A stretch of 64,000 nt of DNA from Chiloscyllium plagiosum (lineage: Eukaryota): the NCBI RefSeq assembly GCF_004010195.1, contig NC_057718.1, positions 99,121,780 through 99,185,779 of the forward strand, written 5' to 3'. Of the stretch, positions 9,976 to 62,713 are shown one piece after another. Within the stretch, counting starts at the first letter, position 1. The number at the start of each line of letters is the position of its first letter. The notes beneath the pieces were generated by a model that saw nothing but the letters and a program-made list of their open reading frames with translations, was not told the origin of the DNA and did no database searches. Made by a program: the position numbers and the translations under genes.

Positions 9976-10555
9976 CCTGTCATCTATTTTCCAAGGGTCT
10001 GTATCCCTCTGCTCCCCTGCCCATTCCTGTATCTGTCTAGATACATCTTAAATGACGCTATCACCCCTGCCTCTACCACCTCTGCTGGCAACGTGTTCCA
10101 AATGTAATCTCTGGTTTGAGACTCTCTATCCCTCCTGTCTAATACCATGAGAATTTTAAGGTTTTTGAGATCTTCCTCATTCTTAAACTCCTGTGAACAT
10201 ATTCCCAACCAATCTAATTTCTCTTCATATGTTAGTCCTGCCTTCCTAGGAGTCAACCTGGGAATCACTCCCTCTGTTGCCAGAATGTCCTTCCTCTGAT
10301 AAGGAAGCTGTACATGGTATACCAGGTGTGATCTCATCAAGGGTCTGTATAATTGCAGCAAAACAAACCACCTGATGAAGGAGCCGTGCTCTAAAAGCGA
10401 GTGTGCTTCCATTTAAACTTGTTGGACTATGACCTAGTGTTGTGTGATTTTTTTTTAAACTTTGTACGCCCAAGTCCAACACCGGCATCTCCAAATCATC
10501 CCTGCTCCTGTGCTTGAACCCTCTAGCTATGAAGGCCAACATACTATTTGCTTTC
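9976..10555 (-). mobile_element. CR1/HER1 LINE fragments (RT C-terminal region), interrupted by a PLE insert
   Basis: ORF remnants LLQLYRPLMRSHLVY and YEEKLDWLG...WNTLPAEVVEAG typical of the CR1 ORF2 3' end. Confidence 0.8.
10367..10499 (+). mobile_element. Penelope-like terminal-repeat fragment, family A (degenerate hammerhead)
   Basis: CCACCTGATGAAGGAGC...GTTGGACTATGACCTAGTGTTGTGTGATTT...CCAAATCAT; splits the CR1 sequence GCAGCAAAACA|TCCCTGCTCC. Confidence 0.75.
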
Positions 10556-10717
10556 TCCCTTTTGTACCAAAAACCGTGCCTAAAACCTTGCTTTCAGCTC
10601 ACTCTTTGGGATGGCAGCTTAGCATCAGGTGAAGTCTCATAGATCAAAACCACCCTCTCCTGCTTCGCTTCCTGGTTAATCTTGGGATCTCTATGAATGT
10701 TAGATAGATATGCAGGT

Positions 10718-11076
10718 TCTGGATTAGTGGTGCTGGAAGAGCACAGCAGTTCAGGCAGCATCCAAGGAGCAGGGTTGGACTTTGTTATATGGCCTCTCAG
10801 GAGAGTAGCATTTTCACTCCATGGTCTTACCACTTCAACACGGTAATCTGTAATAGAACTGTACTGCCCTCTGACACTGTGGAATCTCAAAGATGAGCTG
10901 AAAATCAGACTGGAATATGAACAAATTTACATTGCAATATGGATTGGAGGACTTGAGCTACAGGGAGAGGCTGAATAGGCTGGGGCTGTTTTCCCTGGAG
11001 CGTCAGAGGCCGAGGGGTGACCTTATAGAGATTTATAAAATCATGAAGGGAATGGATAGGGTGAATAGACCAGGCG
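10718..11076. mobile_element. Chimeric insertion: family-B PLE fragment plus a copy of local DNA 11830-12132, flanked by a 12-bp TSD
   Basis: AGATATGCAGGT at 10706-10717 and 11077-11088; 10770-11074 is near-identical to 11830-12132. Confidence 0.8.
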
Positions 11077-11141
11077 AGATATGCAGGTGCCTCTTTTAGT
11101 ATATCTCCATAAATTGGAGATACTGGGGTGTACAAAGTTAA

Positions 11142-11260
11142 GATTAGGTTAGATTACTTACAGTGTGGAAACAAGCCCTTCGGCCCAACAAATCCACACC
11201 GACCCACCGAAGCGTAACCCACCCAGATCCATTCTCCTACATTTACCCCTTCACCTAACT
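11142..11260 (-). mobile_element. HE1-like V-SINE 3' fragment nested in a family-A PLE
   Basis: GATTAGGTTAGATTACTTACAGTGTGGAAACAAGCCCTTCGGCCCAAC is the reverse complement of the SINE tail. Confidence 0.75.
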
Positions 11261-11383
11261 TATAAATTCTGTGTCTTACAATTGTGAACTCCACAACCAC
11301 CTGATGAAGGAGTGGCGCTCTGAAAGCTAGTGCTTCCAATTAAACCTGTTGGACTATAACCTAGTGTTGTGTGATTTTTAACT
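11261..11383 (+). mobile_element. Penelope-like fragment, family A, with near-intact hammerhead core at 11294-11336
   Basis: CAACCAC-CTGATGA-A-GGAGT-GGC-GCTCT-GAAA-GC-TA-GTGCTTC. Confidence 0.75.
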
Positions 11384-13321: not shown

Positions 13322-13608
13322 GAGGAGGAAAACTTCTTCAAGGCAGGCATCCTTGCAAGAGGATTTGCAGTAGGGTTAAAATCAACTAGGTAAAAACAAG
13401 GACTGCAGATGCTGGAAACCAGAGTCTAGATTAGAGTGGTGCTGGAAAGGCACAGCAGGTCAGACAACATCCGAGGAGCAGGAAAATTGACGTTTCGGGC
13501 AAAAGCCCTTCATCAGGAATAAGGACTTTTGCCCAAAAAGTCGATTTTCCTGCTCCTCGGATGCTGCCTGACCTGCTGTGCTTTTCCAGCACCACTCTAA
13601 TCTAGATT
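13322..13608. mobile_element. Penelope-like fold-back insertion, family B
   Basis: Inverted arms ~13422-13503 and ~13526-13608; minus-strand hammerhead core at 13483-13520. Confidence 0.8.
13483..13520 (-). ncRNA. Minimal type-I hammerhead ribozyme motif (PLE family B)
   Basis: ATTC-CTGATGA-A-GGGC-TTTT-GCCC-GAAA-C-G-TC: all core residues present, with a palindromic ACGU in place of helix III. Confidence 0.65.
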
Positions 13609-13754
13609 CTGTTCAGATGTCAGTGGGTCTGGAGTCAATGTATACCAGACTTGGTAAAGATGGAAGATTTCCTCCCCTGAAGAATATCAGTGCATCAGTT
13701 AAAACCAGCAATTGACAAGAGTTTAATGTTACCTTTTTATTTTGTAGAGGGGCC

Positions 13755-14403: not shown

Positions 14404-14506
14404 GGAGAAAGTGAGGACTGTAGATGCTGGAGATCAGAGTCAAAGAGTGTGGTGCTGGAAAAGCACAGCAACCGAGGAGCAGTAGAATTGACATTTCGGG
14501 CATAAG
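14404..14506 (-). mobile_element. Penelope-like fragment, family B
   Basis: GGAGAAAGTGAGGACTGTAGATGCTGGAGATCAGAG...TTGACATTTCGGGCATAAG, truncated inside hammerhead helix II. Confidence 0.75.
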
Positions 14507-14669
14507 GTAGCTAATTGGATACCTTGGAGGCACTTGGACTGCTCTCCTTGGAAAGTTTGAGCAGTGATTTAATCAGGATGTTCATGTGATAGGATTAATA
14601 TGCTACTGGTGGGTCTGAACATAGCAAGTTCAGGATAACTCAACAGTATAAGACAATCAGTATGTTTTA

Positions 14670-15098: not shown

Positions 15099-15108
15099 CA
15101 CTAATTGA

Positions 15109-19049: not shown

Positions 19050-20150
19050 TTTAATCACAGTTAAACCTATCGAATTCATTGTCTTCATCGTCCATAACCA
19101 AGATCTTATGGATATCATTCAGGGTCACTTTGGAAATGGTGTCATCGTAAGGCTCCCATTCTGGATCAGATTTTGTGCTTTTGGCTTCAAAATCATGTCT
19201 CCACCACAAGACATCTTCCTGCCACTCTACTGAATGAAGCCTTCTGCATTGTTTGAACAATCCGTGGTAGTGTCTATTCCAAAAACCTCCCACAATTGGA
19301 TGTCAAAACCAAACAAAATCTGAAGTCACATGACACCGGGTTATAGTCCAACAGGTCTATTTGAACTCACAAGCTTTTGGAGCACTGCTCCAAGTCAGGT
19401 GAAGTCCATCATCCAATCTGACCACGGCTGATCATCCAACTCAGTACCATGTTCCTATTTTCTCCTTTGATCCCTTTAGGCCTAAGAACTATATCTAACT
19501 ATATATGTCGAAAGAGCAGTGCTCTGAAAGCTTGTGATATCAAATAAACCTGTTGGTCTATAACCTGGTATCGTGTGACTTCTGATGTCATCTATCCCAG
19601 TCCGACACCGGCACCTCCACATCATGAAAACAAAATATCAAGCTGACAGCATTCCTGTTTCCTCTCTTTTGGGAAGGCTTTTTCCAAACCTTATCAATCC
19701 ATAACTTCACTCCATCTTATGTAATATGTAATATGTCTTTGAAATATGTAAGAACCCAAGGCAGGGAACTTCATTTTTTTGCTAAGGTTTTATGTTTGAT
19801 AATGACCGTAGATTTTAATTTTGTTCTGTTGGCCGTGCAGACCTGTACCCTTGTGAATCTTGTCTACACACGTCCTGGTGTTTTCACTCCATGGTTCAGT
19901 TGCTGGGGATGTTGAAACTGACAGGCGTTTCAACCACATTCTTATGTGATTTCATGGGCACTTGTGTTTTTGTCGCCATTTGCTGGAAATTGATTCTTTC
20001 GCCATTGGGGCCTTTTGATAAGTCTCTGAGTGATCCTTCTGGACTTTTTATTATGTTCTATGAAGTAGGTACAGCATCTGTCTGTTGCTGCAAAGCCTTT
20101 TGTAGGATTCGTGGTTGGATCTGATCTTTTTAAGTGTGTCATATATTTGA
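19050..20150 (-). pseudogene. Decayed pogo/Tigger-family (POGK-like, DDE_1) transposase, interrupted by later insertions
   Basis: Manual minus-strand translation of 19980-19750 gives NVVETPVSFNIPSN*TME*K and TRFTRVQVCTANRTKLKSTVIIKHKTL..MKFP, resembling pogo NMDETP..FD.PSNRT and RFTVVLAC.ADGTKL..MVIFKRKT.PK.KFP. Acidic C-terminus QEDVLW...DDEDNEFDRF at 19290-19050. Stops and frameshifts throughout. Confidence 0.65.
19321..19625. mobile_element. Penelope-like inverted pair (family A variant, GAAAGCTT) enclosing a CR1 tail fragment
   Basis: Arms ~19321-19402 and ~19510-19590 are reverse complements (GTTATAGTCCAACAGG / CCTGTTGGTCTATAAC). Confidence 0.7.
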
Positions 20151-20395: not shown

Positions 20396-20525
20396 TTCCT
20401 GATGAAAGGCTTATGTCCGAAATGCTGATTCTCCTGCTCCCCGGGTGCTGCCTGACCGGCTGTGCTTTTCCAGCGCCACACTTTTGACTCTGATCTCCAG
20501 CATCTGCAGTCCCTCAACTTTCTCT
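20396..20525 (+). mobile_element. Penelope-like fragment, family B
   Basis: TTCCTGATGAAAGGCTTATGTCCGAAATG...CTGATCTCCAGCATCTGCAGTCCCTCAACTTTCTC. Confidence 0.78.
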
Positions 20526-20578
20526 TAACACTTTCAGTGTTACCTACCTCTATCCCATGCATCCGTTTATAAGGACCA

Positions 20579-20776
20579 AATGAGGACTGCAGGTGCTGGA
20601 GAGTCAGAGTTGAAAAGGTGTTGCTGGAAAAGCACAGCAGGTCAGGCAGCATCTAAGGAGCAGGAGAGTCGACATTTCGGGCATAAGCCTGATGAAGGGG
20701 TAATGCCCAAAACATTGACTCTCCTGCTTCTCGGTTCCTGCCTGATTTGCTGTGCTTTTCCAGCATCACTGTTTTG
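20579..20776. mobile_element. Penelope-like fold-back insertion, family B
   Basis: Inverted arms meeting at ~20687/20688 (GGGCATAAG|CCTGATGAAGGG). Confidence 0.78.
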
Positions 20777-23200: not shown

Positions 23201-23320
23201 ACTGAAGAAAGGTCACTGGATTCTAAATGTTGACTTTGCTTTCTCGAACAGATGCTGCCAGACCTGCTGTGTTTCTCCAGTAATTTCTGTTTTTGTTTCC
23301 GATCTTCAGTATCCACAGTT
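23201..23320 (+). mobile_element. Penelope-like fragment, family C (older)
   Basis: CTGAAGAAAGGTCACTGGATTC..CAGATGCTGCCAGACCTGCTG..TTTCTCCAG; related to 36730-36918 and 39885-39980. Confidence 0.6.
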
Positions 23321-23621
23321 CTGTGAAACTGTTGTCGTTGGTTTACATGTAACTGTTCCGTCACTGGATAAATAAATACCTATTCCAGTGTTTTAAGATT
23401 GTACCTGTTGCGTAAAAAGGAACCTCCATTGGAACTCCAGGTGATCATTTCTCCCTATGAAGCCAGTATTGCTACAAACACATTCCCAATATTGTCAGCC
23501 AGCTCTGTTATTAACACTCTCATCTCTTGAGTCAGAAAGTTGTGGGATCAAGCAAACATCAAGATTGATATGCTAGTGTAGTATTATGGGAGTGCTGTCC
23601 CGGTGAAAGTGCTGCCTTCAG

Positions 23622-25010: not shown

Positions 25011-26458
25011 GAGTGACGGTTTCATACTGAGATTAGGAGGAATTTTTTCACTTGGAGGGAAGTGAATGTTTGGAATTCTCTGCCCCATGAAGGCTATGAG
25101 AGCCCAATCATTGAGTATGTTCAAGTCAGAAATTGATGGGTGTCCAAAGATTAATGATGTAAAGAGATGTAGAGATAATGCAGGAAAATAGCAATGGGGA
25201 GATGATCAGTACTGATGCAGAATGGCGGGCTAGACAGGATGGGCTGAAAAGCCTACCCCTGTTTCTATTTTTGCCGACTCTTTAGTTTGAGCAGGGGAAA
25301 CGAGGCAGGACATCCTGCCGTCCAAAAGGCTTTTAAATGTTAATATTTGTATAGTGTCATTTCAACATCTCTCTGCCCATTGTATTATTCTCTGTTTAAC
25401 ATTCGGCAGCCACTGACCTTCAATATCAAAGATTCTGTGCTTAAACGACATGGACATATGCAAATGAAAAGATTTTGGGATTGCAACCACAATTTTAATT
25501 CACCTTTCTAATTATGCTTTTATAATCACAGAGGCAAATGTTTTCTGTGTCATATTGCATGTAATGAACATATATCATGCAGGTTCACCTCTGAATTCAG
25601 ACAGTTTGATTATTATGCTATTATTTCATGAATAGGTTAACTTTTCTGTGCTTATTCTGTGTTCCTGGCCAAGAACTCCAACTTGTGGAATTCTACCTCC
25701 CTCAGTCTTTCCTTCCTCCACAATCTTTAGGCTTTTAAAATCCAAGCTGGGTGTTACCTGATCATTGCTTCCTGACTGACTTTGTTTTTTCTTTTGACTG
25801 CTTTTTGCAGCTTCAGTGGTGCCCAATCCTATTGTGAGTTAAGATCTTTCTCCTGGTCTCTCTAAAATGCACTGCCGTACAAGAATTCCTTTAAAATCGC
25901 CGAGGAAAATCTGAAAGGGAAATGCTGTTATCACGCCTTCATATTCTCAGAGGTTATTTACTTACTGCCTAATTTGCAGGAAATTGTGTATGGCAGTCAT
26001 CAAAATAGGGAGGCATCAGGCAAGAGCTTAGCATGTGCTGAGCCCCTTCTACGTATCATGAGTGCTACGACTTTGCAAAATTAGCATTTTACAAAGAAAA
26101 TTGAATTCGACTTCCTCTTTTTGTTTATTTTGCCAGGTTATTGTATGTGAGAGCATTACAAGAATGCAGGAGTGGATGGGATTTGGCACTGATCAGAGCT
26201 AACTTCAAAACGTAATAAAATCTCAAACTATGCTTAACTGTGTACCCTTCAGCCACAACCTTTTGCCCCAAAATGTTATCCAGCTCTCTTGAAAATATTG
26301 GCACGATTCACATCTCACAGTTGTGCCAATTAATTCCCGATGTAAGTCAATTTTATACATTTATCTTGTTGCTTCTGAATTTATGTCTGTGCCCTCAGAT
26401 TGCAGTTACTTTCAGCAACATGTTGGAACTCTGTTTATCAATATTCCTTTGAATGTGG

Positions 26459-26819
26459 TTAAAAATCACACGACACCAGGTTATAGTCCAACAGGTTTAT
26501 TTGGAAGCACTAGCTTTCAGAGCACTGCTCCTTCATCAGGTGGTTGTGGAGTATAAGATCGTAAGACACAGAATTAAAGCAAAAGTTTACAGTGTGATGC
26601 AGCTCAAATGATATATTGAAAAAGACTTGGGTTGTTTGTTAAGTCTCTCATCTTTTAGATAAATTCTGTGTCTTACAATCTTATACTCCACAACCACCTG
26701 ATGAATGAACGGTGCTCCGAAAGCTAGTGCTTCCAAATAAACCTGTTGGACAATAACCTGGTGTTGTGAGATCTTTAATTTTGTACACCCCAGTCCAACA
26801 TCGGCTCCTACAAATCATG
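26459..26819. mobile_element. Penelope-like fold-back insertion, family A
   Basis: Inverted arms ~26459-26576 and ~26660-26779 with a longer PLE spacer; hammerhead cores on both strands. Confidence 0.82.
26503..26546 (-). ncRNA. Minimal type-I hammerhead ribozyme motif (PLE family A)
   Basis: CAACCAC-CTGATGA-A-GGAGC-AGT-GCTCT-GAAA-GC-TA-GTGCTTCC; helix I CAC/GTG plus AA/TT; palindromic AGCU in place of helix III. Confidence 0.65.
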
Positions 26820-36729: not shown

Positions 36730-36918
36730 AAAACCAAAAACTGCAGACTCTGTAAATCAGACACAAAAAATAGAAATTGCTGGAAAAGCTCAGGAGGTCT
36801 GGCAGCGTCTGGGGAGAGAAATCAGAATTAACGCTTTTGGTCAAGTGACCCTCTGATTTCTCTCCACAGATGCTGCCTGACCTGCTGAACGTTTTCAGCA
36901 ATTTCTATTTTTTGTCTC
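36730..36918. mobile_element. Penelope-like fold-back insertion, family C
   Basis: AGACACAAAAAATAGAAATTGCTG...GAGAGAAATCAGA is inverted against TCTGATTTCTCTCC...CAGCAATTTCTATTTTTTGTCT. Confidence 0.72.
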
Positions 36919-37987: not shown

Positions 37988-38197
37988 TGTACAAAGTTAA
38001 AAATCACACAACATCAGGTTATAGTCCACCAGGTTTAATTGGAAGCACACTAGCTTTCGGAGCGACGCTCCTTCACCTGATGAAGGAGCATCGCTCCGAA
38101 AGCTAGTGCTTCCAATTAAACCTGTTGGACTATAATCTGGTGTTGTGTGATTTTTAACTTTGTACACCCCAGTCCAACACCGGCTCCTCCACATCAT
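37988..38197. mobile_element. Penelope-like fold-back insertion, family A, near-perfect palindrome
   Basis: Arms ~37988-38075 and ~38081-38166; intact plus-strand hammerhead core CTGATGA 38077-38083, GGAGC/GCTCC, GAAA 38098-38101, TA 38104-38105. Confidence 0.85.
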
Positions 38198-38406
38198 GAC
38201 TTAAATTGTGGAATTGAAATACAATAATAAATAAATAAATCTGGAATTGAAGGTATGGCGGTAGTGGCCCTACCTTTCATCCAGGTGATCTGGGTTCAAG
38301 TCTTATCTGCTCCAAAAGGTGTACAATAATATCCCTGAGCAGATTGACGAGGGGAATATTTAAATCTGGAATTGAAAACTTGTCTCTATAATAGTGATCA
38401 TAAAAC

Positions 38407-38625: not shown

Positions 38626-39166
38626 CTATCAATGTTATTTTGCCATGGTAGCCATGGTGATCCAAGTTAGGCCAAACAACTAGGGGAAGACCTCCCACCA
38701 ACATTTCAGGGAGATTCCTTTGGGCAATTGATGACTGGGCCTCCTGTCCCTTTTCAAATGCAATGACGAGATCGCTAAGAGCTAAGTTCAGGAAGCAGCA
38801 GATCCTCAGTCTCATCAGCGCCATCATGAGCAATGGTTCTTGCTGGTACTGCAGCCAATCAGTAGCAACCTCAAAGGAGGAGGCCCCGAAGTAAGCCCCA
38901 ATGAGAGTATTGGGAGGGAAGGGAGGAGGGCATGGTGTAGGGGATTAGACATCCTGTAGAGTGACCTTTGCAGGTAGGTGGTTCCTCTGTGGCCCAAACA
39001 TGACCAGAACCCCCTGCCTTAAAACTGCAAGGAGCTGCCAGATTTTACTGGGCAGTGTTTGGAGGAATGAAGCCCTTAAGTGGTCCTTAATTAGCCAGTT
39101 AAGGGGCTCAGTTGATCTTCAGCAGGAAGGCTTTGACTTATCTTCCTTGCCACTGAGTGAATTGGA

Positions 39167-39388
39167 ACTGAAAAATGTGTTGCTGGAAAAGCGCAGCAGG
39201 TCAGGCAGCATCCAAGGAGCAGGAGAATTGATGTTTCGGGCATAAGCCTTTCTTCAGATTCCTGAAGAAGGGCTTATGCCTGAAACATCGATTCTCCTGC
39301 TCCTTGGATGCTGCCTGACCTGCTGCGCTTTTCCAGCAACACATTTTTCAGCTCTGATCTCCAGCATCTGCAGTCCTCACTTTCTCCT
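39167..39388. mobile_element. Penelope-like fold-back insertion, family B, with 15-bp TSD
   Basis: ACTGAGTGAATTGGA at 39152-39166 and 39389-39403; arms meet at ~39257/39258. Confidence 0.88.
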
Positions 39389-40039
39389 ACTGAGTGAATT
39401 GGACAGAGTTGACCAGGCAAAAGGAACTCCACGCCTTCAAGACACAAGTTCCCTTGTCCTATTGCCATCAAGTCTAGATCTGTACTCTTTCCAGCAAGGA
39501 CAGAGGTAGAAATATTTCAATTTAAATATTTTTCACCTAAAAAGTCAAGGTCTACTTTAACATTTAACCCTGTTGAACCCTAGACCAGCAAATGCAGCAG
39601 GGTGTGACTTGTGGGAGTGAAATTGGACCCCTCCTAATCCATCTGACATACTGTGACACTTTCTTTTCCAATTCACTCTTGGGATGTGAGAATCACTGGA
39701 AAGACCAGCATTTATTTCCCATAGTAATTGTTGCAGAGGGGCTGCAAATCTCTTGAGTGAAGTTGCTATTAGCCTATTAGTCAGTTCCAGGATTTGGTTC
39801 AAGTTTGTCATGGTTATAATTTGACTGACAATACGCTCAGTTTGCATTAATATGATGTCCATCTTTCTCTGCCTAAAGCTTCCAGTGTAGACAGGCAGGA
39901 GGCTGGAAGAACACAGCAAGTCAGGCAGCATCAGGAGGTGGAGAAGTCAACTTTTCAGGTGTAACCCTTCTTCGGGACTGGGGGTGGGGGCGTCCAGTAC
40001 CTTGTTGAGACATTAATGCCGGACACTCCTGCATCTAAG

Positions 40040-41497: not shown

Positions 41498-42066
41498 ACC
41501 ATATTTTTGTGAACAAAAATGTGAGGGATGGGGTGGTGAGGTTACGTTTCGTTGTAAAATCACAAGATATGAACTCACCATAGCTTAATTCTTTTGGTCA
41601 GCAGTGCTACTTTCCCAGGATTGATCAGAAAAGGGTAATTGTAGTCCTGGGCGGAAGCAACGCTAACTCAATAAAGAATCAATTGGGACAACTGTTTTCC
41701 CTGAGGGTATTGGATCAGCCATGCTGAGAATGTTCCATCGGAATGATTCCCGTTTTAGTTTACTTGTTGGAATTATAAAGATCACATGGAGAGTCTTGGG
41801 TGAATGGAAGCCACAATTGTTAACTTGTACATTGATGTCATAGTGTGATCATTGTACTCGAATTCACAATTATCAGTGACTTATCAAAACAATCTGCTTA
41901 ACAATTCAGTGACTGTTAGTGTTTGTGATGAGCATAATTACATGAAATGTAATGGGTTTGTAACTGGGGATTGCTGCCTTTTTTTTCTTTTGTCCCTTAC
42001 TTCCAAGTCATAAAGTAGTGAAAGACCTCTTTCTGTATGTTCAAAAAAATTCTCTTTTGAATGTTA

Positions 42067-42281
42067 TGATGTGGAGATGCCAGTGTTGGACTGCGGTCAA
42101 CTAAGTTAAAAGTCACACCACACCAGGTTATAGTCCAACAGGTTTATTTGGAAGCACTAGCTTTTGGAGCGCAGTCCCTTCATCATCTTTCACCATCTGA
42201 TGAAGGAGCAGTGCTCTGAAAGCTAGTGCTGCCAATTAAACCTCTTGGACTATAACCTGGTGTTGTGTGACTTTTAATTTT
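42067..42281. mobile_element. Penelope-like fold-back insertion, family A
   Basis: Inverted arms around ~42185-42195; plus-strand core CTGATGA (42197-42203) AGGAGCAGTGCTCTGAAAGCTA. Confidence 0.82.
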
Positions 42282-42884
42282 GAATGTTAAAGCTTAGAAG
42301 TGACTGTTGGTAAACAGTCAATCTGATTGCAAGAAAGTGAGATTAAAGGTTTTTTAATGAAGTACATGTTCCAACCAGGAAGCCTGAAGCCAGCCTGCGA
42401 TTCTATCTTGAGTCTTATTTAACATTTTCTGAACAAGCCCCTGAGGCACTCCACCTATTTTAAGACAGTCCAGATATTGCAGAGTTGAGGAAGTAAGCCA
42501 ATAGCTTTCGGATTCAGCGTGTTGATTTTATTTTTGAAATGAGAAATCCTTTTGGTGGTGGTATTTGCTTAGATGATAGGCTGTGTTGCTGCTCTACAAT
42601 GTCCAATTTGGACTGAAGTGGACACTCCTTTATATACAGTAATTCAAAGGTCTCCTGCTACTTTAAGCAGCTTCCTATGTCTATTGTAAATGGCCTGATA
42701 TGATATGAGATGGACGTCCTGAAGGCATTCTTCATATTCCAGTTGTTCCTCTGAAATTGCCCCTCATTACAGTAGCAAAGGATGAACCACTTGAGCCTTA
42801 ACAAGAAAAGGCAATTGTCTTTTCAAGATGTAACGATTTCAATCAAGCAATAAACTGCAAGTTACATTGACTAATTCGACCAAA

Positions 42885-43844: not shown

Positions 43845-44112
43845 AGGAGAAAAGTAAGTACTGCAGATGCTGGAGACCAGAGCTGAAAAATGTGGTGCTG
43901 TAAAAACACAGCAGGCCAGGCAGCATCCAAGAATCGACGTTTCGGGCGTAAGCCCTTCTTCAGGTATCCTGAAGTCGAGAGGGTGTTGTTGGAAAAGCAC
44001 AGGTCAGGCAGCATCTGAGAAGCAGGAAAATCAATGTTTTGGGCAAAAGTTTCCTGAAGAAGGGCTTATGCCCGAAACATCGATTCTCCTGCTCCTCGGA
44101 TGCTGCCCGGCC
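43845..44112. mobile_element. Compound family-B PLE insertion in a DeuSINE tail, 17-bp TSD
   Basis: TGCTGTTTCTGGGAGCT at 43828-43844 and 44113-44129; two direct segments followed by an inverted arm. Confidence 0.78.
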
Positions 44113-44162
44113 TGCTGTTTCTGGGAGCTTCCTGTGTGTAAAATGGCTGCCTTGCTGCTTAT

Positions 44163-44358
44163 AGGCGAAAGTGAGGACTGCAGATGCTGGGGATTAGAGT
44201 TGAGAGCGTAGTGCTGGAAAATCACAGCAGCATCCGAGGAGCAGGAGAATTGACATTTCGGGCAAAAGCCCTTCATCAGGAAACTTTTGCCCGAAACATT
44301 GATTTTCCTGCTTCTCGGATGCTGCCTGACCTGTGCTTTTCCAACACCACCCTCTCAA
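44163..44358. mobile_element. Family-B PLE fold-back insertion, ~16-bp imperfect TSD
   Basis: CTGCCTTGCTGCTTAT (44147-44162) versus CTGCCTTGTTTCTTAT (44359-44374); arms meet at ~44281. Confidence 0.75.
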
Positions 44359-47300: not shown

Positions 47301-48581
47301 GGGGGCAGGATGTCGCACCTTCCTAAAACCTTCGCTGGAATGATCCAAACTCTGCACACTCCTACTCCAACGACTCAGCTTTCAGAAATGATCAGATATT
47401 GACCTCCTGGTGCAGGTTCCAGCCAATGAACAGCACGGTTAGTGTTGGTTGGATGCTGTACTCATGTAAACTTAAACCATGAGGCATAGTCTGAGAATTA
47501 GGACCTGACTGTTCGTGAGAAATGTATAAGGAATATGGGTCAAAGGCAATTATATGGAGTTAGGCCACAGATGCCATAATCTTATTGAATGGTGGAGCTG
47601 GCTTGAGGGGCTGAATGGCCTGCTCCTCCTCAAAGTTTTTATGGAAAATAGAAGCAAGAGTAGTCATTGAGTCCTCCAGCACGGAGACAGGCCCTTTGAC
47701 CCAAATTGGTCCATGCTGACCGAAATGGCCATCCACACTAACCCCATTTCCTTGCACTTGGCCCATATCCTTCTAATCTTTTCCTAACCATGTATTTGTC
47801 CAAATGCCTTTTAAATATTGTTACTGTACCTGCCTCAACCACTTCCACTGGCAGCTCATTCCATATGCGTACCACCCTCTGTGTAAAAAAGTTTCCCCTC
47901 AGGTTCCCTTTTATTCTTTCCCCTCTAACCTTAAACTGATGCCCTCTAGTCCTCGATTCCCCAACCCTGGGGAAATTACTGAATGTATTCACTCTATCCA
48001 TGCTTCTCACGATATTATACACCTCTTTAAGATCCCCCTCAGTCTCCTACGCTCTAAAGAAAAGAGTCTCATCTTGTCCAACCTCTCCCTATAACTCAGA
48101 CTGTTGAGTCCTGGCAACATCCTTGTAAATTGCTTCTGCACTCTTTCCAGTTTAATAGCACCCTTCCTATAGCAAGGTGACCAAAACTGAACACAACACT
48201 CCAAGTGCGACCTCATCAATGTCTTGTATAACTGCAACATAACTTCCAAACTTCTATCCTCTGAGTCCTGACTGAAGGTCAGTGTGCCAACAGCCTTCTT
48301 CAATGCCCTGTCTACCTGTGATTCCACCTTTAGAGAACGGTGCACCTGAACCCCAAGGTCCCTCTGTTCCACTACACTCCTTAAGGCCCTACCATTCACT
48401 ATGAAACTCCTACCGAGATTTGACTTTCCAAAATGCAAGCGTTCATATTTATCTGTATTAAACTCCATCTGTCATTTCTCAGTCCGCTTCCCAGCTGTTC
48501 AAGGTCCTGCTGCAATTTCTGATAATCTTCCTTACTGTCCATGATACCATCATTTTAGTGTAATCTCCAACCTTACCAATC

Positions 48582-48695
48582 ATGATTTGGAGATGCTGGT
48601 GTTGGACTGGGGTGTACAAAGTTAAAAATCACACAACACCAGGTTATAGTCCAACAGGTTTAATTGGAAGCACATTAGCTTTCGGAGTGACGCTC
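48582..48695 (-). mobile_element. Family-A PLE fragment nested in the CR1 RT
   Basis: ATGATTTGGAGATGCTGGTGTTGGACTGGGG...TAGCTTTCGGAGTGACGCT; flanks share AATCATG. Confidence 0.8.
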
Positions 48696-49515
48696 TTTGC
48701 TAATCATGCCTTGGAAATTCTCATCCAAATCATTGATATAGTTAGCAAACAGCAATGGGCCCAGCACTGACCCTTGAGGCACTCCACTCTTCACAAGCCT
48801 CCAAACTGACAATCATCCTTCCATTATTACCCTCTGCTTCCTATTATCAAGCCCATTTTGTATCCAATTTGCCAGCTCACCCTGGATGCCATGCGATCTA
48901 ACCTTCCAGAGCAGCCTACCCTTGGAACCTTATCAAAGGTCTTCCTGAAATCCATTTGGACTATGTCTACTGCCCTGCCATCGTCAACCTTCCTGGCCAC
49001 TTCATTAAAGAACTCTAACAAATTTTTGAGGCATGATCTCCCATGTACTAAGCCATGCTGACTATTCCTAATCAAACTCTGTCTTTCCAAATGCATGTAT
49101 ATCTTATCTCTCAGAATCTTCTTGAGTAACTTACCTACCACAGATGTTAGGCTTCCTGGTCTATTGTTCCCTGGATTTTCTTCAGCGCCCTTCTTGAATA
49201 AGGGCACAACAGTCACTACTCTCCAGTCTTTGAGGATCTCACCCATGGCTAATGATGATGTATAAATATCAGCCACAGTCCCCACAATTTCTTCTCGAGT
49301 CTCTTGCAGCGTTCTTGGATATATCTGGTCAGGACCAGGAGGTTTATCCACCTTCATACATTCAAATGCATTCAATACCTCCTTTGCTGTGAAATGGACT
49401 GTCCCCAAGATATCACCACTGAATTCCCCAAGTTCCCAAGTCTTCTTGTCTTCCTCCACAGTAAATACAGAGGAGAAATATTCATTGAGGACCTCACCCA
49501 TCTCCTGCGGTTCTA

Positions 49516-49811: not shown

Positions 49812-51345
49812 GTACCTCCAGGGATTCCCCTGATCCCAGCTGCCTGTACCTGAATCACGCCTCCTCCTTTTTTTCTGATCAAAGCCTCAATGTCTCTTGT
49901 CATCTAAGGTTTCCTATTCCTGTCAACCTTGCCCTTCACCCACACAGGAACATATAGACCCTTGTACTCTAGCTATCTCACTTTTAAAGGTCTCCTACTT
50001 GCTAGAGGTCCTTTTGACCTGAAAATAAAACTGCTCCAATCAAGCTCCTGTCTAATTCCAGCAAAATTTGCCTTGCCCCAATTTAGAACTTGATCCTGTG
50101 GACCAGTTTTGTCCCTCTCCATAACTATTTAAAAATTAATAGAACTATGGTCACTGGTCCCTATGTATGCCTCCCCATTGTCACCTCCCTCACCTGTCCT
50201 GCCCTATTTCCCAAGAGTAGGTTGAATTTTGCTCCTTCCTGAGTAGGACCCTCTATATGCTGCTTGAACGCACTTAACAAATTCCACTCTGTCTGAGCCC
50301 TTAACGCTATGGCAGTCCCAGTCTATTTTAGGAAAATTAAAATCCCCTGCTATGACAACCCAATTGCTTCTGCAAGTCTCCCCAGTCTCCCTGCATATGC
50401 TTTCCTCTAATTCCCATTGACTATTTGGCGGCCTATAGTACAATCCCAATAACATCACCATCCCCTTTTTATTTCTCAGCTCCACCCACAAAGCCTCACT
50501 GGATTATCCTTCCGTTATTTCATCTCTGATTACTGCTGTGATACTCGCCTTAATCAAAGATGCAACTCCCCCTCCCCTCCTTCCTCCACCTCTGTCCTGC
50601 CTAAAGCACCTGTACCCTGGCACATGAAGCTGCCAGTCCTGTCCCTCCCTTAACCATTTTCTGTCATGGCTATAATATTCCAGTCCCATGTACCTATCCA
50701 TGCCCTGAGTTCATCAGCCTTACCTGTCAGCCCTCTTCCACTGAAATAGATGCAATTAGGCATTCCTCGCTCAGTCATTTTCCAACATGACTTCACTTTA
50801 CTATTTCTGATTAGTGTATCTCCTTCTAGCCTCGCCCTTGCCTCCCTGCTGCTGAGGATCGCATCTCCTTCCAATCTAACCCTCCCTTGTAGCATGAGCA
50901 AACCTGGCCACCAAGATTTTGGTCCCCCTCCAATTCAGATGCAACCCGTCTCTCTTGAACAGGTCACCTTTGCCTGAGAAAAGATCTCAATGATCTAAGA
51001 ATCTGAAGCTCTGTACCCTGTACCAATTCTTTGGCCACACATTCATCTGCCATGTCCTTCTGTTCGTTTGGTCTTTGAGCTTGCTCTGCTATTGACTATG
51101 ATCATGGATGATCATCCAACTCAATTGCCTGTTCCCACATTTCCTCTGTATTCTTTCATCCTTCTTGCCCCAAATGCTACATCCAACTATTTCTTGAATT
51201 CATACATTGTTTTGGCCTCAGCTTTTTGCAATTTCACCACACTCAAGGTAAAGAAATCTCTCTTGTTATTGTGTATGAAGCATGAATTACAGTTTACAAG
51301 GTCATACAGCATGGAAACAGACCCTTTGGTTCAGGCAGATTGGCT

Positions 51346-51440
51346 TCACAACCACCTGATGAAGGAGCGTCGCTCCAAAAGCTAGTGCTTCCAATTAAAC
51401 CTGTTAGACTCTAACCTAGTGTTGTGTGACTTTTAACTTT
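51346..51440 (+). mobile_element. Family-A PLE fragment
   Basis: CACAACCACCTGATGAAGGAGCGTCGCTCCAAAAGCTAG (core G12 mutated to A). Confidence 0.78.
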
Positions 51441-55039: not shown

Positions 55040-55815
55040 TCATGTTTTCGTATTCATCCATTGGATGTGGGTGTAGCTGGCTCAGCCAATGTATATTGCC
55101 TTGTTTCTCATATCCCTGGAGACTTTGTTGGTGAGGTGTCTTGAATAGCTGCAATCCTTGGGTTTCAGGTCACCCAGAAGCCACACCAGCGATTAGCATT
55201 GGCATGGCGATCATGGCTTTGATTTCTAATTCCAGAAGCCGCTGCCACAGATGGGCTTTGGAGGACTCTGAAGCTCGTAAGAAAATAAAAATGTTGCTTA
55301 TGGCCCCAATACTTACATGGCTGGTTCAGTTCTATTTCTAGAAATGGTAACCCTTAGGAAATTGGTTGTGGGGGGATTCAGTGTATATCAAAAGACTATG
55401 GTTAGATTTGCTCTTGTTGGAGTGTGGGATTTGTATGGAATAAATGTTGCTTGCCACTTACCAGGCAAAGCCTGCATTCCTGAAGAAGGGCTCATGCCCG
55501 AAATGTCGATTCTCCTGCTCCTTGGATGCTGCCTGACCTGCTGCGCTTTTCCAGCAACACATTTAAAGCCTGTATGTTGTCCAGGCCTTGCTGCATTTGG
55601 ACTGTTTTAGTCTCACAGGAGTCGTGAATGGTGCTGAACATCATACAATGATTAATGAACGTCCCCGCTCCTGACCATGTGATGCAGGGAAGGCCACTGA
55701 TGGAGCAGCTGAAGGTGGATGAGCCTAGGACGCTCTGTGGTACTCCCACAGAGATGAACTGGAGCTGAGATGACTGACTTCCACAAATCACAACCCATTG
55801 GGTCATGACAGTCTC
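55040..55815 (-). mobile_element. Older CR1/L2-group LINE RT and 3' fragments (related ~57480-57760 minus, ~58880-59730 plus)
   Basis: VGVPQSVLGSSTFSCSISGLP...MQQGLDNIQA decayed RT motif. Confidence 0.65.
55478..55564 (+). mobile_element. Family-B PLE fragment with 11-bp TSD
   Basis: AAAGCCTGCAT (55467-55477) / AAAGCCTGTAT (55565-55575); starts at the hammerhead CTGAAGA. Confidence 0.78.
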
Positions 55816-55834
55816 CATTGGACTTAAAGTTATT

Positions 55835-56510
55835 AAATTGAATTGAATTTATTGTCACGTGTACTGAGGCACAGTGAAAAGCTTTGTCTTTCGAGCAATA
55901 CAGGCAGATCACAGAGTTAAGTAGCATAGGTAAATGAATAAGAGTAACAGTGGCAAAAACAAAAACACAGATACAGGCGAATGTTAAGAGTTTCTGAGTC
56001 CATTCAGTATTCTAACAACAGTAGGGTAGAAACTGTTATGAAACCGGCTGGTGCGTGTGGTCAGGCTTCTGCACCTTCTCCCCGATGGTAGATGTTGGAG
56101 AAAAACATTGCCAGGGTGGGATGGATCTTTGAGAATGCTGGCGGCCTTTCCTTGACAGTGGGCCTGGTAGATGGATTCCATAGATGGGAGGTTGGCCTTT
56201 GTGATTGTCCGGGTCGAGTTCACCACTCTCTGTAACTGTCTCCGATCTTGAATGGTACAGTTGCCACACCAGGTCGTGATGCATCCAGATAGAATGCTTT
56301 TGATGGGGCTTCTATAAAAGTTGGGGGAGAAAGTGAGGACTGCAGATGCTGGAGATCAGAGTTGAAAATGTGTTGCTGGAAAAGCGCAGCAGGTCAGGCA
56401 GCATCCAAGGAGCAGGAGAATCGACGTTTCGGGCATAAGCCCTTTTTCAGCTCACCTATAAAAGTTGGCAAGGGTATTCACCATCATGCCAAATTTCCTC
56501 AGCTGCCGAA
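55835..56510 (-). mobile_element. Rex1/Babar-like LINE 3' part
   Basis: KAASILKDPSHPGNVFLQHLPSGRRCRSLTTRTSRFHNSFYPTVVRILN matches the C-terminal motif of Rex1/Babar-type RTs; AATAAA plus (TTCAA)n tail. Confidence 0.72.
56325..56455 (-). mobile_element. Family-B PLE fragment nested in the Rex-like LINE, 13-bp TSD
   Basis: CTATAAAAGTTGG at 56312-56324 and 56456-56468. Confidence 0.82.
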
Positions 56511-59482: not shown

Positions 59483-60067
59483 CGAGATAGACAAAAATAG
59501 CAAGTGCTTGGGAATGTAGCGACCTGAAAGCTCTTCTTCAAGCCTGTCTTGGAAATATATTGTTATTCCTTCATTGTCATTGGGTCAAAAAACAGCTGCT
59601 AGAACATTCTCCCTAACAGCATGAACTGAGGCAGTTCCGGAAGGTACCTCACATTCTCAAGGGCAGTTAGGGATGGGTAACAAACACTGACCAAGCCAGC
59701 AATCACCACATCGCATGAGAGAACATATGAAAGGATCAATTGGAAAAACCTGAATTCAAGTCGCGAGAGTCTACCAAATCATAGGGCTGCTCTCCCATTC
59801 GAGAGAGAGGTGGTGATTTAACTTGAAGGTCACCACAGCTCAGATAAGGGAGGAGGTTGAGCAGGAGACTGGTAATCTCAGCTGGTGCAGGAATTGAACC
59901 CACACTGTTGGTACCACACTACTTTGCAAAGCAACACCCCCACCCCCTCCATGACTGGAATCATATTGAGTCTCACAAGCCATTAGAGTTTCTCTGATCT
60001 TTTCATTGTAATCCCAGTTCATTCATAAAATGCAAGCAATGAGGAAGGCAAATGCTGTTGCATCTTA

Positions 60068-60480
60068 AGACCATAAGATGTTGAAGTGGAAGTAAGGCCA
60101 TTCAGCCCATTGAGTCCTCTCCACCATTTAATCATGGCTGATGGGAATTTCAACACCACTTACCCACACTCTCCCCGTAGCCCTTAATTCCTTGCAAGAT
60201 CAATAATTTATCAATCTCTGCTTTGAAGACATTTAACGTCCCACTGCGCTCCGTGACAATTAATTCCACAGGTCCACCACTCTCTGGCTGAAGAAATGTC
60301 TCCTCATTTCCGTTCTAAATTGACCCCCTCTAATTTTAAGGCTGTGCCCACTGGTCCTAGTCTCCCCGCTTAATTGAAACAACTTCCCAACGTTCCCCCT
60401 TTCTAACTCATGCATTATCTTGTAAGTTCCTATTAGATCTCTCCTCAACCTTCTAAATTCTAATGGATACAATCCCAGGA
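60068..60480 (-). mobile_element. CR1 LINE 3' fragment
   Basis: YPLEFRRLRRDLIGTYKIM...FFSQRVVDLWN; TCTTATGGTCTTA tail. Confidence 0.85.
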
Positions 60481-60849
60481 TCTTGTGAGGGAAATGGATG
60501 TTGCTCTACATTTGTGCAGGTGCCCGTTTTGATCTCTTTATTTAAGAAAGCAAATAAATGTCAAAGCCTAGCAGAGAAATTTCACTTGATTGATACCTGG
60601 GGTGACAGGATTATCTATTGAGGAAAGGTTGGACAGGGTGGGTCTGTATCCGTTGGAGCTTAGAAGAGTGACAGTTACTGAGATAGATAAGATCCTGAGG
60701 GGACTTGACAGGGTGGATACGGTGAAAGGGTGTCTCCTTCTCATGGGAGAGACTAGAACTGGGGGGGATGCAGTTTAAAAATAGGGGCTCTCCTGTTTAA
60801 GACTGAGAGTAGGAGGATTTTCATTCTTATTTTGAAACTCTGTTTTTGT

Positions 60850-61146
60850 AGATTAGATTAGCTACAGTGTGGAAACAGGCCTTTGGCCCAGCAATCCCAT
60901 ACTGACCCTCCAAAGAGTAACCCACCCTGACCCAGTTCCCTCTGACTAATGTATCTATAATTCCAGGCAATTTAGCATGGCCAATTCACCTGGCCTGCAC
61001 ATCTTTGAACTGTGGGTGGAAACCAGAGTACCTGGAGGAAACCCACGCAGGCAGAATGTGCAAACAGAGAGTCACCCACGATTGGGATCAAACCTGGGAC
61101 CCTGGTGCTTTGAGGCAGCAGTGTTGACCACTGAGCCACCGTGCCG
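60850..61146 (-). mobile_element. HE1-like V-SINE nested in a plus-strand CR1 fragment (~60560-61290)
   Basis: Reverse-complement SINE; host ORF remnant EERLDRVGLYPLELRR. Confidence 0.8.
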
Positions 61147-62512
61147 TTTCTCAGAGAATGTTGGAGGGAGGGTCACTTGAATATTTCCAGGGCAGAAATG
61201 AATTCTTGACTAACAAGGGAGTCAAAGGTTATCGGGGGTAGATGTTTAGAGCCCAGTCAGATCTTAATGAATGGCCTACTCTTTCTCCCAAGTCATGACT
61301 TTACATTCAGGGAACCCAATCAAAGATTCTGTGATTATGTTCAATAATCTTTTATTTGATTTCGAGGGAGTCCCTCAACTTCCTACTTATAAACATAATC
61401 TCATACAGGGGTTTAATTGTAAAGACCCAACATGTGATATTTCTCCATCGACAGTTCCTGTACATTGTCCTGCATCGTGTTATGTATTGTGTAAAAATCG
61501 ACTTGTGAATGATTTTCAGTGCAGAAGCTGTTTGCAAATGGGGGCTTTAAAAAGTCCCCCCCTTTTGTCCATGCCGCCCCCCCCTCCCCCCGACCCCCTC
61601 CCCTTTAGTCTGGACACTGAGTCATTCATTTTCAAATAATTTTCAATGGCTTCAGAGCAAAGCTAAACACATTCTAACCCAAAGGCCACATTTATGTAAA
61701 CAAGTTCATTTCAACTGAGGCAGAGACATTGCTAACCATTGTTAGACATGTGGAAACAAAGGGCAGGCGACGATTAACCCTATCAGCTTGTGGTGCCTTG
61801 AGACTGAGAGGTCAGCTAATAGTCAGCAGTCCAGGGTGGGTAGAGTTTCCCACACTCTCACTGTTGCCTGTTCCCCTTAAGCTATCTGGTTCTTTATCCT
61901 GAATCATGGGGAGTTGCTTTTATCAGTTTACAGCTGTTCCCAGAGAAGTGAAATTGACCACTAAAAGGCTGATTGTCAGATATGAAGTAAAGATCAGCTC
62001 CTGACACCTTCGGACGGTAAATTGAGCAGGATTGAAAGCAGAGTAGATGGTATTTATAGAAGCAGTTATACTGGCTGAAAAATGGATGTTAGAGTAGCAG
62101 TGAATCCTGAAATATAAAAGGCTTTCCTATTAAGGGTCACTTTAGAAACTGGAAATATCTCCTTGCGTTTCTGAACAACGTAAATGATAATGATTATATG
62201 TACTACAACATTCGCAAGAAATATTTGGGAATTTCCTTAACTGTTTGTTTAACCTATTGAAATCACTGAAAAAAACAGAACCGTGTCATTTAGTTATTGC
62301 CCATTGCACTGTTGAGAAGAATGAATCTAAAAGCCACAATCTGCACTTAATTTTGTATGGCTCACTCCTGTGGCTTGGATGTGGCTCCTCCAGAGAATTG
62401 ACCACATTGTACATGGTGGTTCTTTTTAGGATGAATTAGATTTTCTTCCAAGCATGGCTGAACGGCTTTACCCCCTCCCCTTCCAACAGACCAGTCTACA
62501 TGAAAGAATGGA

Positions 62513-62713
62513 AAAGCGCAGCAGGTCAGGCAGCATCCAGGGAACAGGAGAATCGACGTTTCGGGCATAAGCCCTTCTTCAGGATTCCTGAAGAAGGGCT
62601 TATGCCCGAAACGTCGATTCTCCTGTTCCCTGGATGCTGCCTGACCTGCTGCGCTTTTCCAGCAACACATTTCCAGCTCTGATCTCCAGCATCTGCAGAC
62701 CTCACTTTCTCCC
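62513..62713. mobile_element. Very young family-B PLE fold-back insertion; perfect 76-bp-arm palindrome; 17-bp TSD
   Basis: 62509-62584 is the exact reverse complement of 62586-62661; TSD CTAC(A/G)TGAAAGAATGGA at 62496-62512 and 62714-62730. Confidence 0.92.
62582..62621 (+). ncRNA. Minimal type-I hammerhead motif (mirror copy on minus strand at 62549-62588)
   Basis: GGATTC-CTGAAGA(62588-62594)-A-GGGC-TTAT-GCCC-GAAA(62608-62611)-C-G-TC^-GATTCT; predicted cleavage after 62615. Confidence 0.68.

Follow-up and report, generated by a model that had tools for sequence, protein, structure and literature searches.

What are the hammerhead-bearing repeats found in 52 kb beside shark Jagged-1, and how did they come to be inserted there? 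The window, by which we mean the whole stretch of Chiloscyllium plagiosum DNA that was analysed, is 64,000 nucleotides long. A first-pass annotation had described about 20 copies in two or three families, one per 3 kb, and had assigned them to Penelope-like elements (PLEs). Dispersed minimal hammerheads derived from truncated PLEs are described in fish, coelacanth, Xenopus and reptiles (PMC4209133); the category is known already, and the two main families here are further members of it. Statements about published work refer to the portions of each cited source used here. We put the probability at roughly 0.85 that the insertions are short products of two or three endonuclease-bearing PLE lineages, each representing the end of a terminal repeat.

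Families, copies and the hammerhead motif

Homology mapping places 14 arms of family A at 9 loci and 19 arms of family B at 12 loci; three more arms, at 2 loci, belong to family C, an older relative of B. Together these 23 loci, one per 2.3 kb or so across the 52 kb, bear out the earlier estimate of copy number and spacing, though a single window sets no size for a population genome-wide. The repeats cover 3,877 bases, or 6.1% of the window. All six hammerhead motifs cited in the first-pass annotation were found where it had placed them. In the list below, a strand is given where the feature has one, signed positions are relative to C3 of the hammerhead, and fractions are identities between the arms of a pair.

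6478..6774, minus: Jagged-1 coding exon (MNNL domain), context only; marks the host as a shark
10366..10499, plus: A1, single A arm, tailed; G12 mutated; no target duplication found
10718..10773, minus: B0, B fragment from +34, without hammerhead or tail
11100..11141, minus: tailed A remnant truncated by a different repeat; probably the missing left arm of A2
11261..11383, plus: A2, A arm from about -36, untailed; strict core 11301-11325
13395..13611: B1, head-to-head pair of the older B subfamily; 83/91; left (minus) arm tailed; strict core 13493-13516 minus; target duplication not found
14404..14506, minus: B2, single B arm from +11, tailed
19318..19626: A3, old head-to-head pair with 123-nt spacer; right-arm tail; 9-bp target duplication; 63/73
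20396..20524, plus: B3a, single B arm, tailed; 12-bp target duplication
20572..20775: B3b, head-to-head pair; left-arm tail; 12-bp target duplication; 55/67
23201..23330, plus: C1, decayed single C arm, tailed
26458..26819: A4, head-to-head pair; right-arm tail; 11-bp target duplication; 108/117; minus arm reaches at least -101, the longest 5' extension; strict core 26515-26539 minus
36098..36302: A5, head-to-head pair; tail on left arm (starts +46); 10-bp target duplication
36728..36918: C2, decayed C head-to-head pair; left-arm tail
37988..38198: A6, head-to-head pair; right-arm tail; 11-bp target duplication; 82/86; fully intact minimal hammerhead 38077-38101 plus
39165..39388: B4, young head-to-head pair; right-arm tail; perfect 15-bp target duplication; 89/93
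39902..39977, minus: B4b, diverged single B arm, untailed
42066..42282: A7, head-to-head pair; left-arm tail; perfect 12-bp target duplication; 72/83; strict core 42197-42221 plus
43845..44118: B5ab, a single insertion flanked by a perfect 17-bp target duplication; in order, tailed minus arm, inner piece (about 43975-44058; inverted copy of neighbour B5c, 80/84 identical), untailed plus arm
44163..44358: B5c, older head-to-head pair; left-arm tail; 16-bp target duplication with 2 mismatches; 54/64
48581..48698, minus: A8, single A arm from +6, tailed, inside a CR1-type LINE; target duplication doubtful
51344..51440, plus: A9, single A arm from -12, untailed; G12 mutated
55476..55564, plus: B6, young single B arm, untailed; 8-bp target duplication (about 11 with one mismatch)
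56326..56450, minus: B7, young single B arm, tailed; perfect 13-bp target duplication
62509..62713: B8, youngest head-to-head pair, 76/76; right-arm tail; 17-bp target duplication with 1 mismatch; cores intact at 62588-62611 plus and 62559-62582 minus

The descriptor search recommended in the first-pass annotation was carried out over the window. A strict minimal-hammerhead descriptor (CUGANGA, one extra base, a G-started helix II of at least 4 bp, and GAAA) gave 12 matches, four in family A and eight in family B, compared with 0.03 on average, and at most 1, across 200 dinucleotide shuffles. The hammerhead family is not among the Rfam matches in the window at E<=1; the nine matches, all on the hairpins of these elements and below the gathering score, are to eight microRNA-precursor models and one plastid cis-element. 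Local alignment of A with B finds only a 10/11-nt core stretch in common, and the two are otherwise unrelated. In both families helix II pairs, as first proposed, and the majority base at each position gives the PLE minimal hammerhead, with its core boxes, the extra base after A9, G10.1-C11.1 and a palindromic helix III position. The palindrome noted earlier is thus present in both consensus sequences, but it is kept in only 8 of the 12 strict matches; its loss in four of the eight B matches (ACGU broken) is due to CpG decay. Helix I has 3 bp in A and 0-2 bp in seven of the eight B matches (B sequence upstream of -4 is absent from all copies); published PLE minimal hammerheads have about 4-5 bp, or 2 bp in Drosophila virilis.

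A complete ribozyme, one that combines the core, G10.1-C11.1, the palindrome and a helix I of 2 bp or more, is found in only 3 of 33 arms (C3 at 38077 plus, 62588 plus and 62582 minus), and the label 'ribozyme-bearing' therefore overstates function. CpG decay has removed G12 from 4/13 A arms and 3/18 B arms; apart from such decay, hammerhead variation lies mainly at N7, loop II and H17. The expectation that the core would be better conserved than its flanks was not borne out at significance within either family (A, 2/104 core versus 43/661 flank, p 0.07; B, 4/147 versus 49/812, p 0.12). Nor does any locus in the window carry two intact cores in tandem on the same strand. Since the pairs place their ribozymes on opposite strands, they would form long hairpins rather than the dimers first envisaged: six head-to-head pairs gave predicted folds of -116 to -211 kcal/mol in which the motif is buried. 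Self-cleavage of PLE minimal hammerheads has itself been published as low or protein-dependent (PMC4209133, PMC11167929).

Could the host have selected these sequences, as ribozymes or hairpin RNAs regulating the Jagged-1 region? The slight, non-significant excess of core conservation points that way, and the strong predicted hairpins could feed ADAR or Dicer. Against this stand the loss of G12 to CpG decay, the scarcity of intact arms and the 10 kb around the Jagged-1 exon, which contain no element, and we regard the idea as hardly credible. The copies in the window are mostly decayed and mostly neutral debris; the ribozyme would have been under constraint in the source elements.

Identity between the arms of a pair ranges from 82 to 100%, which implies activity spread over a long period. 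The description 'recently active' suits only the young B subfamily, with 0-3.4% non-CpG divergence, while other arms reach 19%.

Anatomy of arms and pairs

Each arm comprises a minimal type-I hammerhead and, downstream of it, about 60 nt; some arms then carry a tail of another 35-40 nt. The core lies about 65-125 nt ahead of the arm ends, which fall into two groups, and no poly(A) was seen at them. Head-to-head inverted pairs make up 11 of the 21 A/B insertions, and in all 11 the tail is present on exactly one arm (P=0.0005 if arms were independent at 0.5); the rule becomes 11/12 if the inner part of B5ab, which is tail-less, is counted as a pair of its own. Single A/B arms are divided evenly, five tailed and five untailed. 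Endonuclease-bearing PLEs can also form partial tandems with a direct pseudo-LTR; B5ab is the only case of same-strand arms here, its inner piece being the B5c copy.

The tail pairs back to +45/+46 in both families, with 9 and 7 Watson-Crick pairs (tail-shuffle p 0.007-0.018, in a Watson-Crick-only test picked after the G-U-inclusive result was known); with G-U pairs allowed, the stem is not significant in A (p 0.18-0.48) or C (p 0.46-0.58). Target duplications of variable length, 8-17 bp, flank 14 of the 21 A/B units, that of A8 being doubtful, and 7 have none. They were called at a score of at least 7, a threshold reached by 2.5% of 400 random position pairs. An AT-rich target preference is a trait of endonuclease-bearing PLEs; thirteen of the duplications are 64% AT, versus 58% for the window.

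At the other end, 27 of 33 arms start within -12..+11 of C3, that is, at the ribozyme 5' edge. Starts lie upstream of the cleavage site in 31/33 arms and exactly at it in none, which implies that the templates were uncleaved.

Probable origin from Penelope-like elements

Head-to-head pairs, a one-sided tail and 8-17 bp duplications are the published PLE signature and make a PLE origin likely. The first-pass annotation proposed this origin without citing these three features, having missed the anatomy. The link it had anticipated to a reverse transcriptase (RT) and GIY-YIG reading frame was not found: between 9 and 64 kb of the window, none of the 237 frames that reach 62 aa or more matched GIY-YIG, pattern searches gave no such link, peptide searches returned unrelated proteins only, and no locus in the window has an ORF between its repeats. 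This is expected, because the copies are truncated.

Cervera and de la Pena 2014 (PMC4209133) list four marks of PLE minimal hammerheads, and all four sequence marks of these metazoan type-I motifs are also present in the shark copies: the core boxes, the extra base between 9 and 10.1, G10.1-C11.1 and the palindromic 15.2-16.2. Several consensus families per genome, mainly dispersed single motifs and close opposite-strand pairs are likewise common to both. The pairs in that study are 100-700 bp apart, whereas those in the shark mostly abut directly, and the Schistosoma examples have longer helices than the shark motifs, in which helix I has 2-3 bp and helix II 4-5 bp. The main text and supplementary files of that paper, as far as these were covered, make no mention of sharks.

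Endonuclease-bearing PLEs of the Poseidon and Neptune clades (PMC8557442, PMC3846280) show the same 5' truncation, inverted head-to-head copy, 30-40 bp tail at one end and short target duplication; in Arkhipova 2013 (PMC3846280) an inverted pLTR carries a 31-bp tail on one copy, with 8-10 bp duplications. Unlike the shark loci, those elements have an ORF between the repeats, and their tail rule is worded as 'often' or 'optional', compared with 11/11 A/B pairs here. PAc, the Poseidon element of Anolis carolinensis (Frangieh 2024, PMC11167929), is alike by description, with a hammerhead followed by two internal RT start sites bounding the tail and an uncleaved template. Read by eye, the letters of its Fig. 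S1B show the tail pairing with an internal segment as part of a nested stem. Two features set PAc apart: its reading frame begins within stem II, and about 30 nt more separate the cut site from the first start site.

Many of the loci, as 190-360 bp inverted repeats with target duplications, could be taken for class II MITEs with hammerhead-like words arising by chance. The duplications vary in length, however, the two ends are unequal, the centre differs at each locus, single arms (B3a, B6, B7) have duplications of their own, and the same ribozyme core sits at the centre of two unrelated families; the MITE reading is already strongly disfavoured. Non-LTR retrozymes, whose hammerhead units repeat in tandem and yield circular RNAs, are likewise short and non-coding, have type-I hammerheads, are related to PLE terminal repeats and are reported from one chondrichthyan (PMC7229834, 10.64898/2026.07.22.740005). 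Retrozymes form head-to-tail arrays, whereas the shark copies are dispersed single arms and palindromes with minimal rather than canonical motifs; no array of at least two hammerhead units occurs in the window, and 0/7 Tandem Repeats Finder rows overlap an element, so that this identity is very improbable. A SINE (Pol III, LINE-mobilised) was also considered and is ruled against by the two end groups without poly(A); no tRNA or 5S match was found in the window in Rfam at E<=1.

How the pairs may form

Craig 2021 (PMC8557442) states that the formation of PLE inverted repeats and tails is unresolved. The regular back-to-back layout hints at how PLEs copy themselves, and its most useful lead is the strictness of the one-tail rule. 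In anole, the PLE protein, a predicted dimer, cuts and extends both strands, and starts at two internal sites bounding the tail on uncleaved RNA (PMC11167929).

Tentatively, the palindromes may record obligately asymmetric double priming, in which the two subunits of a PLE protein dimer each extend one end of the same staggered break, the first beginning at the distal (tail) start and the second at the proximal one. The stem formed when the tail folds back onto about +45 would fix the choice of start, and both cDNAs would end at the hammerhead, near the RNA 5' end. By analogy with published PLE biochemistry, an RT/GIY-YIG protein would bind the stem-loop downstream of the hammerhead, make a staggered target cut and begin reverse transcription inside uncleaved RNA at one of the two sites, giving tailed or untailed ends. 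The cDNA would stop near the hammerhead 5' edge, where the RNA begins or the RT stalls, so that copies would be just 90-130 nt. In our own model, the two 3'-OH ends of the cut would each prime a cDNA, one per start site; the cDNAs, joined at their 3' ends, would give a one-tailed palindrome, and a single arm would remain if either was lost. A minor allele is common to both arms in 9/11 pairs, which supports this account. Counting against it, informative sites differ between arms in 9/11 pairs (five sites in B5c), and in A6 an indel that recurs in A1 and A8 separates the two arms; a single template does not predict this. Obligately asymmetric double priming, if true, would account in a single reaction, with no need for ribozyme cutting, for the inverted repeats, for the tail being on one side and for the excess of copies of 90-130 nt. 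No account of obligate asymmetric double priming was found in the published work on PLEs covered, twin priming included.

It is also conceivable, though doubtful, that one cDNA (or an antisense template) self-primes and copies back, the published reading of Arkhipova et al. 2013 (PMC3846280). The B8 arms are 76/76 identical and have in common two variants not found together elsewhere, and several junctions are near-perfect palindromes. Against fold-back, some pairs differ at subfamily sites. Furthermore, single arms are untailed as often as tailed (5 versus 5), so that fold-back starting from an untailed first cDNA should yield tail-less pairs, yet these number 0/11.

The reading of the copies as short products of PLEs differs from a further possibility, itself somewhat unlikely and the version given in the first-pass annotation, on whether short copies beget short copies: self-standing non-autonomous families, with source loci and a promoter of their own, mobilised in trans by PLE protein. 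Such families are compatible with PLE ancestry. Upstream of the hammerhead, arms extend by about 100 nt at most, and in family B never past -4; three A arms share a start region, about -36 to -43, at a TATAAA-like word; a stem-loop alone suffices for internal initiation (PMC11167929); and a B5c piece, junction included, was re-copied into B5ab. On the other hand, junctions and 5' starts vary between pairs, so palindromic units were mostly not copied whole, most PLE insertions are 5'-truncated regardless (PMC8557442), and transcripts across the six folded pairs are predicted to be long hairpins that bury the signals. Nor is there a need for separate families, since autonomous PLEs can themselves give rise to such short copies.

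If the rest of the genome resembles the window, it would offer thousands of natural products on which the one-tail rule and the end positions could be tested. The repeats also matter for annotation: making up about 6% of the window, they resemble MITEs or microRNA precursors to standard tools, and they appear translated within Chiloscyllium gene models.

Hammerhead motifs and the repeats that carry them

The hammerhead loci in this window are real, and they are most likely short products of Penelope-like element (PLE) insertion, a known kind of sequence seen here in a shark. All six motifs cited in the first-pass annotation are present where it placed them, and a strict hammerhead descriptor returns 12 matches in the window, compared with a mean of 0.03 and a maximum of 1 in 200 shuffles. 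Homology mapping assigns 14 arms (an arm being one copy of the repeat) at nine loci to family A and 19 arms at 12 loci to family B. Three further arms at two loci make up family C, an older relative of B, for a total of 23 loci covering 3,877 bases; all counts of hammerhead elements apply to the 64-kb window only. A lone fragment at 21904-21932, similar to the tail region of B and C and probably a very old copy, was left out of the counts. Hammerhead positions follow the standard numbering scheme, and arm coordinates are given relative to position C3, with minus values upstream.

The hammerhead core is the only sequence that families A and B have in common. Both carry the four marks of PLE minimal hammerheads that are found in the account of PMC4209133: families that differ in sequence with pairing kept, an extra base after A9, the G10.1-C11.1 pair and a palindrome at the helix III position. 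At the cleavage site, the majority triplet is CUA in family A and GUC in family B. The palindromic helix III position, reported in the first-pass annotation, is seen in both families but is kept in just 8 of the 12 strict matches, and everything is intact together in 3 of 33 arms.

Inside each family the core varies a little less than its flanks, but not significantly so (2/104 versus 43/661, p 0.07 in A; 4/147 versus 49/812, p 0.12 in B; CpG sites excluded). CpG decay has destroyed G12 in 4 of 13 A arms and 3 of 18 B arms, and the recurrent differences inside the motif are mostly at N7, loop II and H17, a pattern consistent with constraint on the source elements and with decay of the copies. 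The arms of a pair are between 82% (locus B3b) and 100% (B8) identical, with non-CpG divergence of 0 to 19%. The description of the population as recently active suits only one B subfamily (B4, B6, B7 and B8), which is young, while the other copies are older; the perfect symmetry of B8 could alternatively come from gene conversion or assembly.

Insertion anatomy and the origin of pairs

Two classes of arm end are seen, one at about +63 to +96 and the other at about +115 to +126, which indicates an optional tail of 35-40 nt. Head-to-head pairs account for 11 of the 21 A/B units, and in all 11 one arm is tailed and the other untailed; the ten single arms are evenly divided (five with a tail, five without). 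If arms were independent with a probability of 0.5, the chance of the 11/11 pattern would be 0.0005. The family C pair obeys the one-tail rule as well. At A2, the tailed left arm was probably removed by another insertion. A perfect 17-bp duplication encloses locus B5ab, which is therefore scored as a single unit; when its inner part is scored apart, the rule holds in 11/12. This inner piece (43975-44058) is an inverted copy of the older B5c (44273-44360), about 200 bp away, with 80 of 84 positions identical and the junction included, and looks like the result either of a jump to a nearby DNA or RNA template as insertion took place, or of later gene conversion.

Target duplications of 8-17 bp (score at least 7) flank 14 of the 21 units, that of A8 being doubtful, compared with 2.5% of 400 random position pairs; the other seven units have none. 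No arm ends in poly(A). B6 and B7 each have a separate duplication, which rules out a single long tail-to-tail element.

At the 5' side, 27 of 33 arms start between -12 and +11. Among the rest, three A arms begin near -36 to -43, one arm extends to -101 or beyond, and two have starts downstream of C3 (+34 and +46). The family B reference starts at -4, and the alignment contains no common sequence upstream of that point. Ribozyme cleavage is ruled out as the source of these ends, as none of the 33 arms begins at the cleavage site; thus, the inserted cDNAs came from RNA uncut by its own hammerhead. Short copies may reflect run-off where the RNA starts close by, or stalling of the reverse transcriptase (RT) at the hammerhead. 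In Drosophila virilis, as described in PMC4209133, the start is 46 nt before an intron whose end lies at helix I, and by analogy run-off is plausible. The three A arms with a joint start, some 40 nt before the hammerhead, have a TATAAA-like word there (11258-11270, 26658-26670 and 36180-36192), possibly an RNA start, a promoter or an RT pause.

How pairs form can be considered in light of the anole PLE protein, for which the available account (Frangieh 2024, PMC11167929) describes cutting and extension of both target strands, two internal start sites that bound the tail, a predicted dimer, and no requirement for ribozyme cleavage. In the proposed mechanism, cDNA would be primed on sense RNA from each of the two 3'-OH ends left by a staggered cut, giving a head-to-head palindrome within the duplication; this predicted product is the layout observed. 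A single complex using each start site once is the simplest fit to the one-tail rule. If each arm picked its start site independently, pairs with two tails and pairs with none would both be expected, and neither is seen. The palindrome might also be made by fold-back of the first cDNA, but fold-back from an untailed first cDNA predicts tail-less pairs, again not seen. Under the single-complex scheme, displacement of the first cDNA by the RT could allow the same RNA to be copied twice; PLE RTs are not known to have RNase H. Alleles point both ways: the two arms have a minor allele in common in 9 of 11 pairs, and in 9 of 11 they are unlike at informative sites (five sites in B5c). Both the strict one-tail rule and the way in which 5' ends cluster could be tested cheaply across a genome, and they bear on how PLEs insert.

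Probable relationship to Penelope-like elements

The PLE origin claimed in the first-pass annotation agrees with the anatomy of the insertions, but the expected parent reading frame (RT plus GIY-YIG endonuclease) was not found, and so membership rests on that anatomy. The parts of the published record drawn on here describe PLE insertions with 5' truncation, an adjoining inverted copy and a tail of 30-40 bp that is often confined to one end (Craig 2021, PMC8557442), an inverted repeat in which one copy has a 31-bp tail, with a 9-bp duplication (Arkhipova 2013, PMC3846280), and thousands of minimal hammerheads dispersed per genome, opposite-strand pairs among them (Cervera and de la Pena 2014, PMC4209133). 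Portions of further papers were also used (Li 2026, 10.64898/2026.07.22.740005; Goubert 2022, PMC8969392; Schostak 2008, PMC2377424; Cervera 2020, PMC7229834; and the whale shark paper, PMC8455134). Among the papers listed for shark or Chiloscyllium Penelope elements, shark hammerheads and palindromic non-autonomous PLEs, none describes these families, although they may already have entries in Repbase or Dfam. Readings of the repeats as MITEs or as tandem retrozymes were dropped, since the repeats fail the defining tests of each.

GIY-YIG is matched by none of the 237 frames (62 aa or longer) taken from 9-64 kb. Peptide searches and pattern scans of viral contigs, metagenomes and prokaryote genomes gave no link to a PLE frame; blanks in the scans are expected, because this is shark DNA. 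An ATG near +46 is conserved in family B, and in several copies the frame stays open through the tail end. A profile search with this frame matched two proteins only, a PDZ gene model from Chiloscyllium and a repeat protein from an insect, the latter unrelated, and a second family B frame matched only two isoforms of another Chiloscyllium gene model. As none of these is a PLE protein, both frames were rejected as the start of a PLE reading frame.

In families A and B, the tail pairs with a segment from +45 or +46, enclosing an inner hairpin. The stem has nine Watson-Crick pairs in A and seven in B (tail-shuffle p 0.007-0.018, from six non-independent arms), a test chosen after the result with G-U pairs was known; with G-U allowed, p is 0.18-0.48 (A), 0.012-0.013 (B) and 0.46-0.58 (C), significant in B only. 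Whole-arm folding energy is better than in shuffles for only one of five arms. By eye, the letters of Fig. S1B for the anole element PAc, taken from its text form (Frangieh 2024, PMC11167929), give a similar nest, with CAUGGCC/GGCCAUG around CACAG/CUGUG. A common downstream fold from the tail to +45/+46 is suggestive, not established.

Copies in place and their genomic setting

The two motifs of a head-to-head pair are on opposite strands, and the six pairs folded are predicted to form, whichever strand is taken, long hairpins (-116 to -211 kcal/mol) that would keep the hammerhead from folding. Tandem intact cores on the same strand are absent from every locus. Dimer cleavage is thus a question for the parent elements rather than for these copies. 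Unconstrained co-folding of two hammerhead segments gave no dimer fold, a result uninformative on activity; the 4-bp helix III palindromes pair only weakly (-1.7 and -2.5 kcal/mol).

Some palindromic insertions (26497-26740, 38033-38121, 62538-62631 and others) match unrelated Rfam microRNA-precursor models, with E down to 2e-9. These matches are below the gathering score and are ruled out as microRNAs, being hairpin artefacts; such insertions could thus inflate shark microRNA predictions. Family B also appears translated in two gene models of Chiloscyllium plagiosum, near the C-termini of a FUBP3-like protein (two isoforms) and of the PDZ protein, probably as annotation artefacts and possibly as real exonisation.

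A Jagged-1 exon (6478-6774, minus strand) contains an MNNL domain (Pfam) and is 90% identical to a Heptranchias perlo protein, and at most 74% identical to the other 119 matches listed. Among sequencing runs, matches were listed for organism A (best share 0.75) and for a relative, organism B (0.32-0.33), with no RNA run among them. Around the exon, self-BLAST shows positions 1-9685 to be free of multi-copy repeats, and no hammerhead element lies there. Beyond 9685 there is one element per 2.3 kb, and an empty 1-9685 has a chance of about 0.02 if elements are uniformly distributed, which suggests selection against insertions near the Jagged-1 5' region. From 9 kb onward, the only protein remnants above Pfam cut-offs are pieces of LINE RT and APE-type endonuclease, interpreted as CR1-type:

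47662-50503, CR1-type LINE remnant (RT and APE endonuclease pieces), with hammerhead locus A8 nested in it
53652-54338, CR1-type LINE remnant (RT and APE endonuclease pieces)

Other repeats lack a visible hammerhead. A 75-nt inverted repeat (62739-62813 and 63682-63756, 79% identical) surrounds 868 nt right after B8, and two repeats of about 125 nt are each present in two copies (18749-18871 and 27519-27643; 30056-30182 and 36438-36571).
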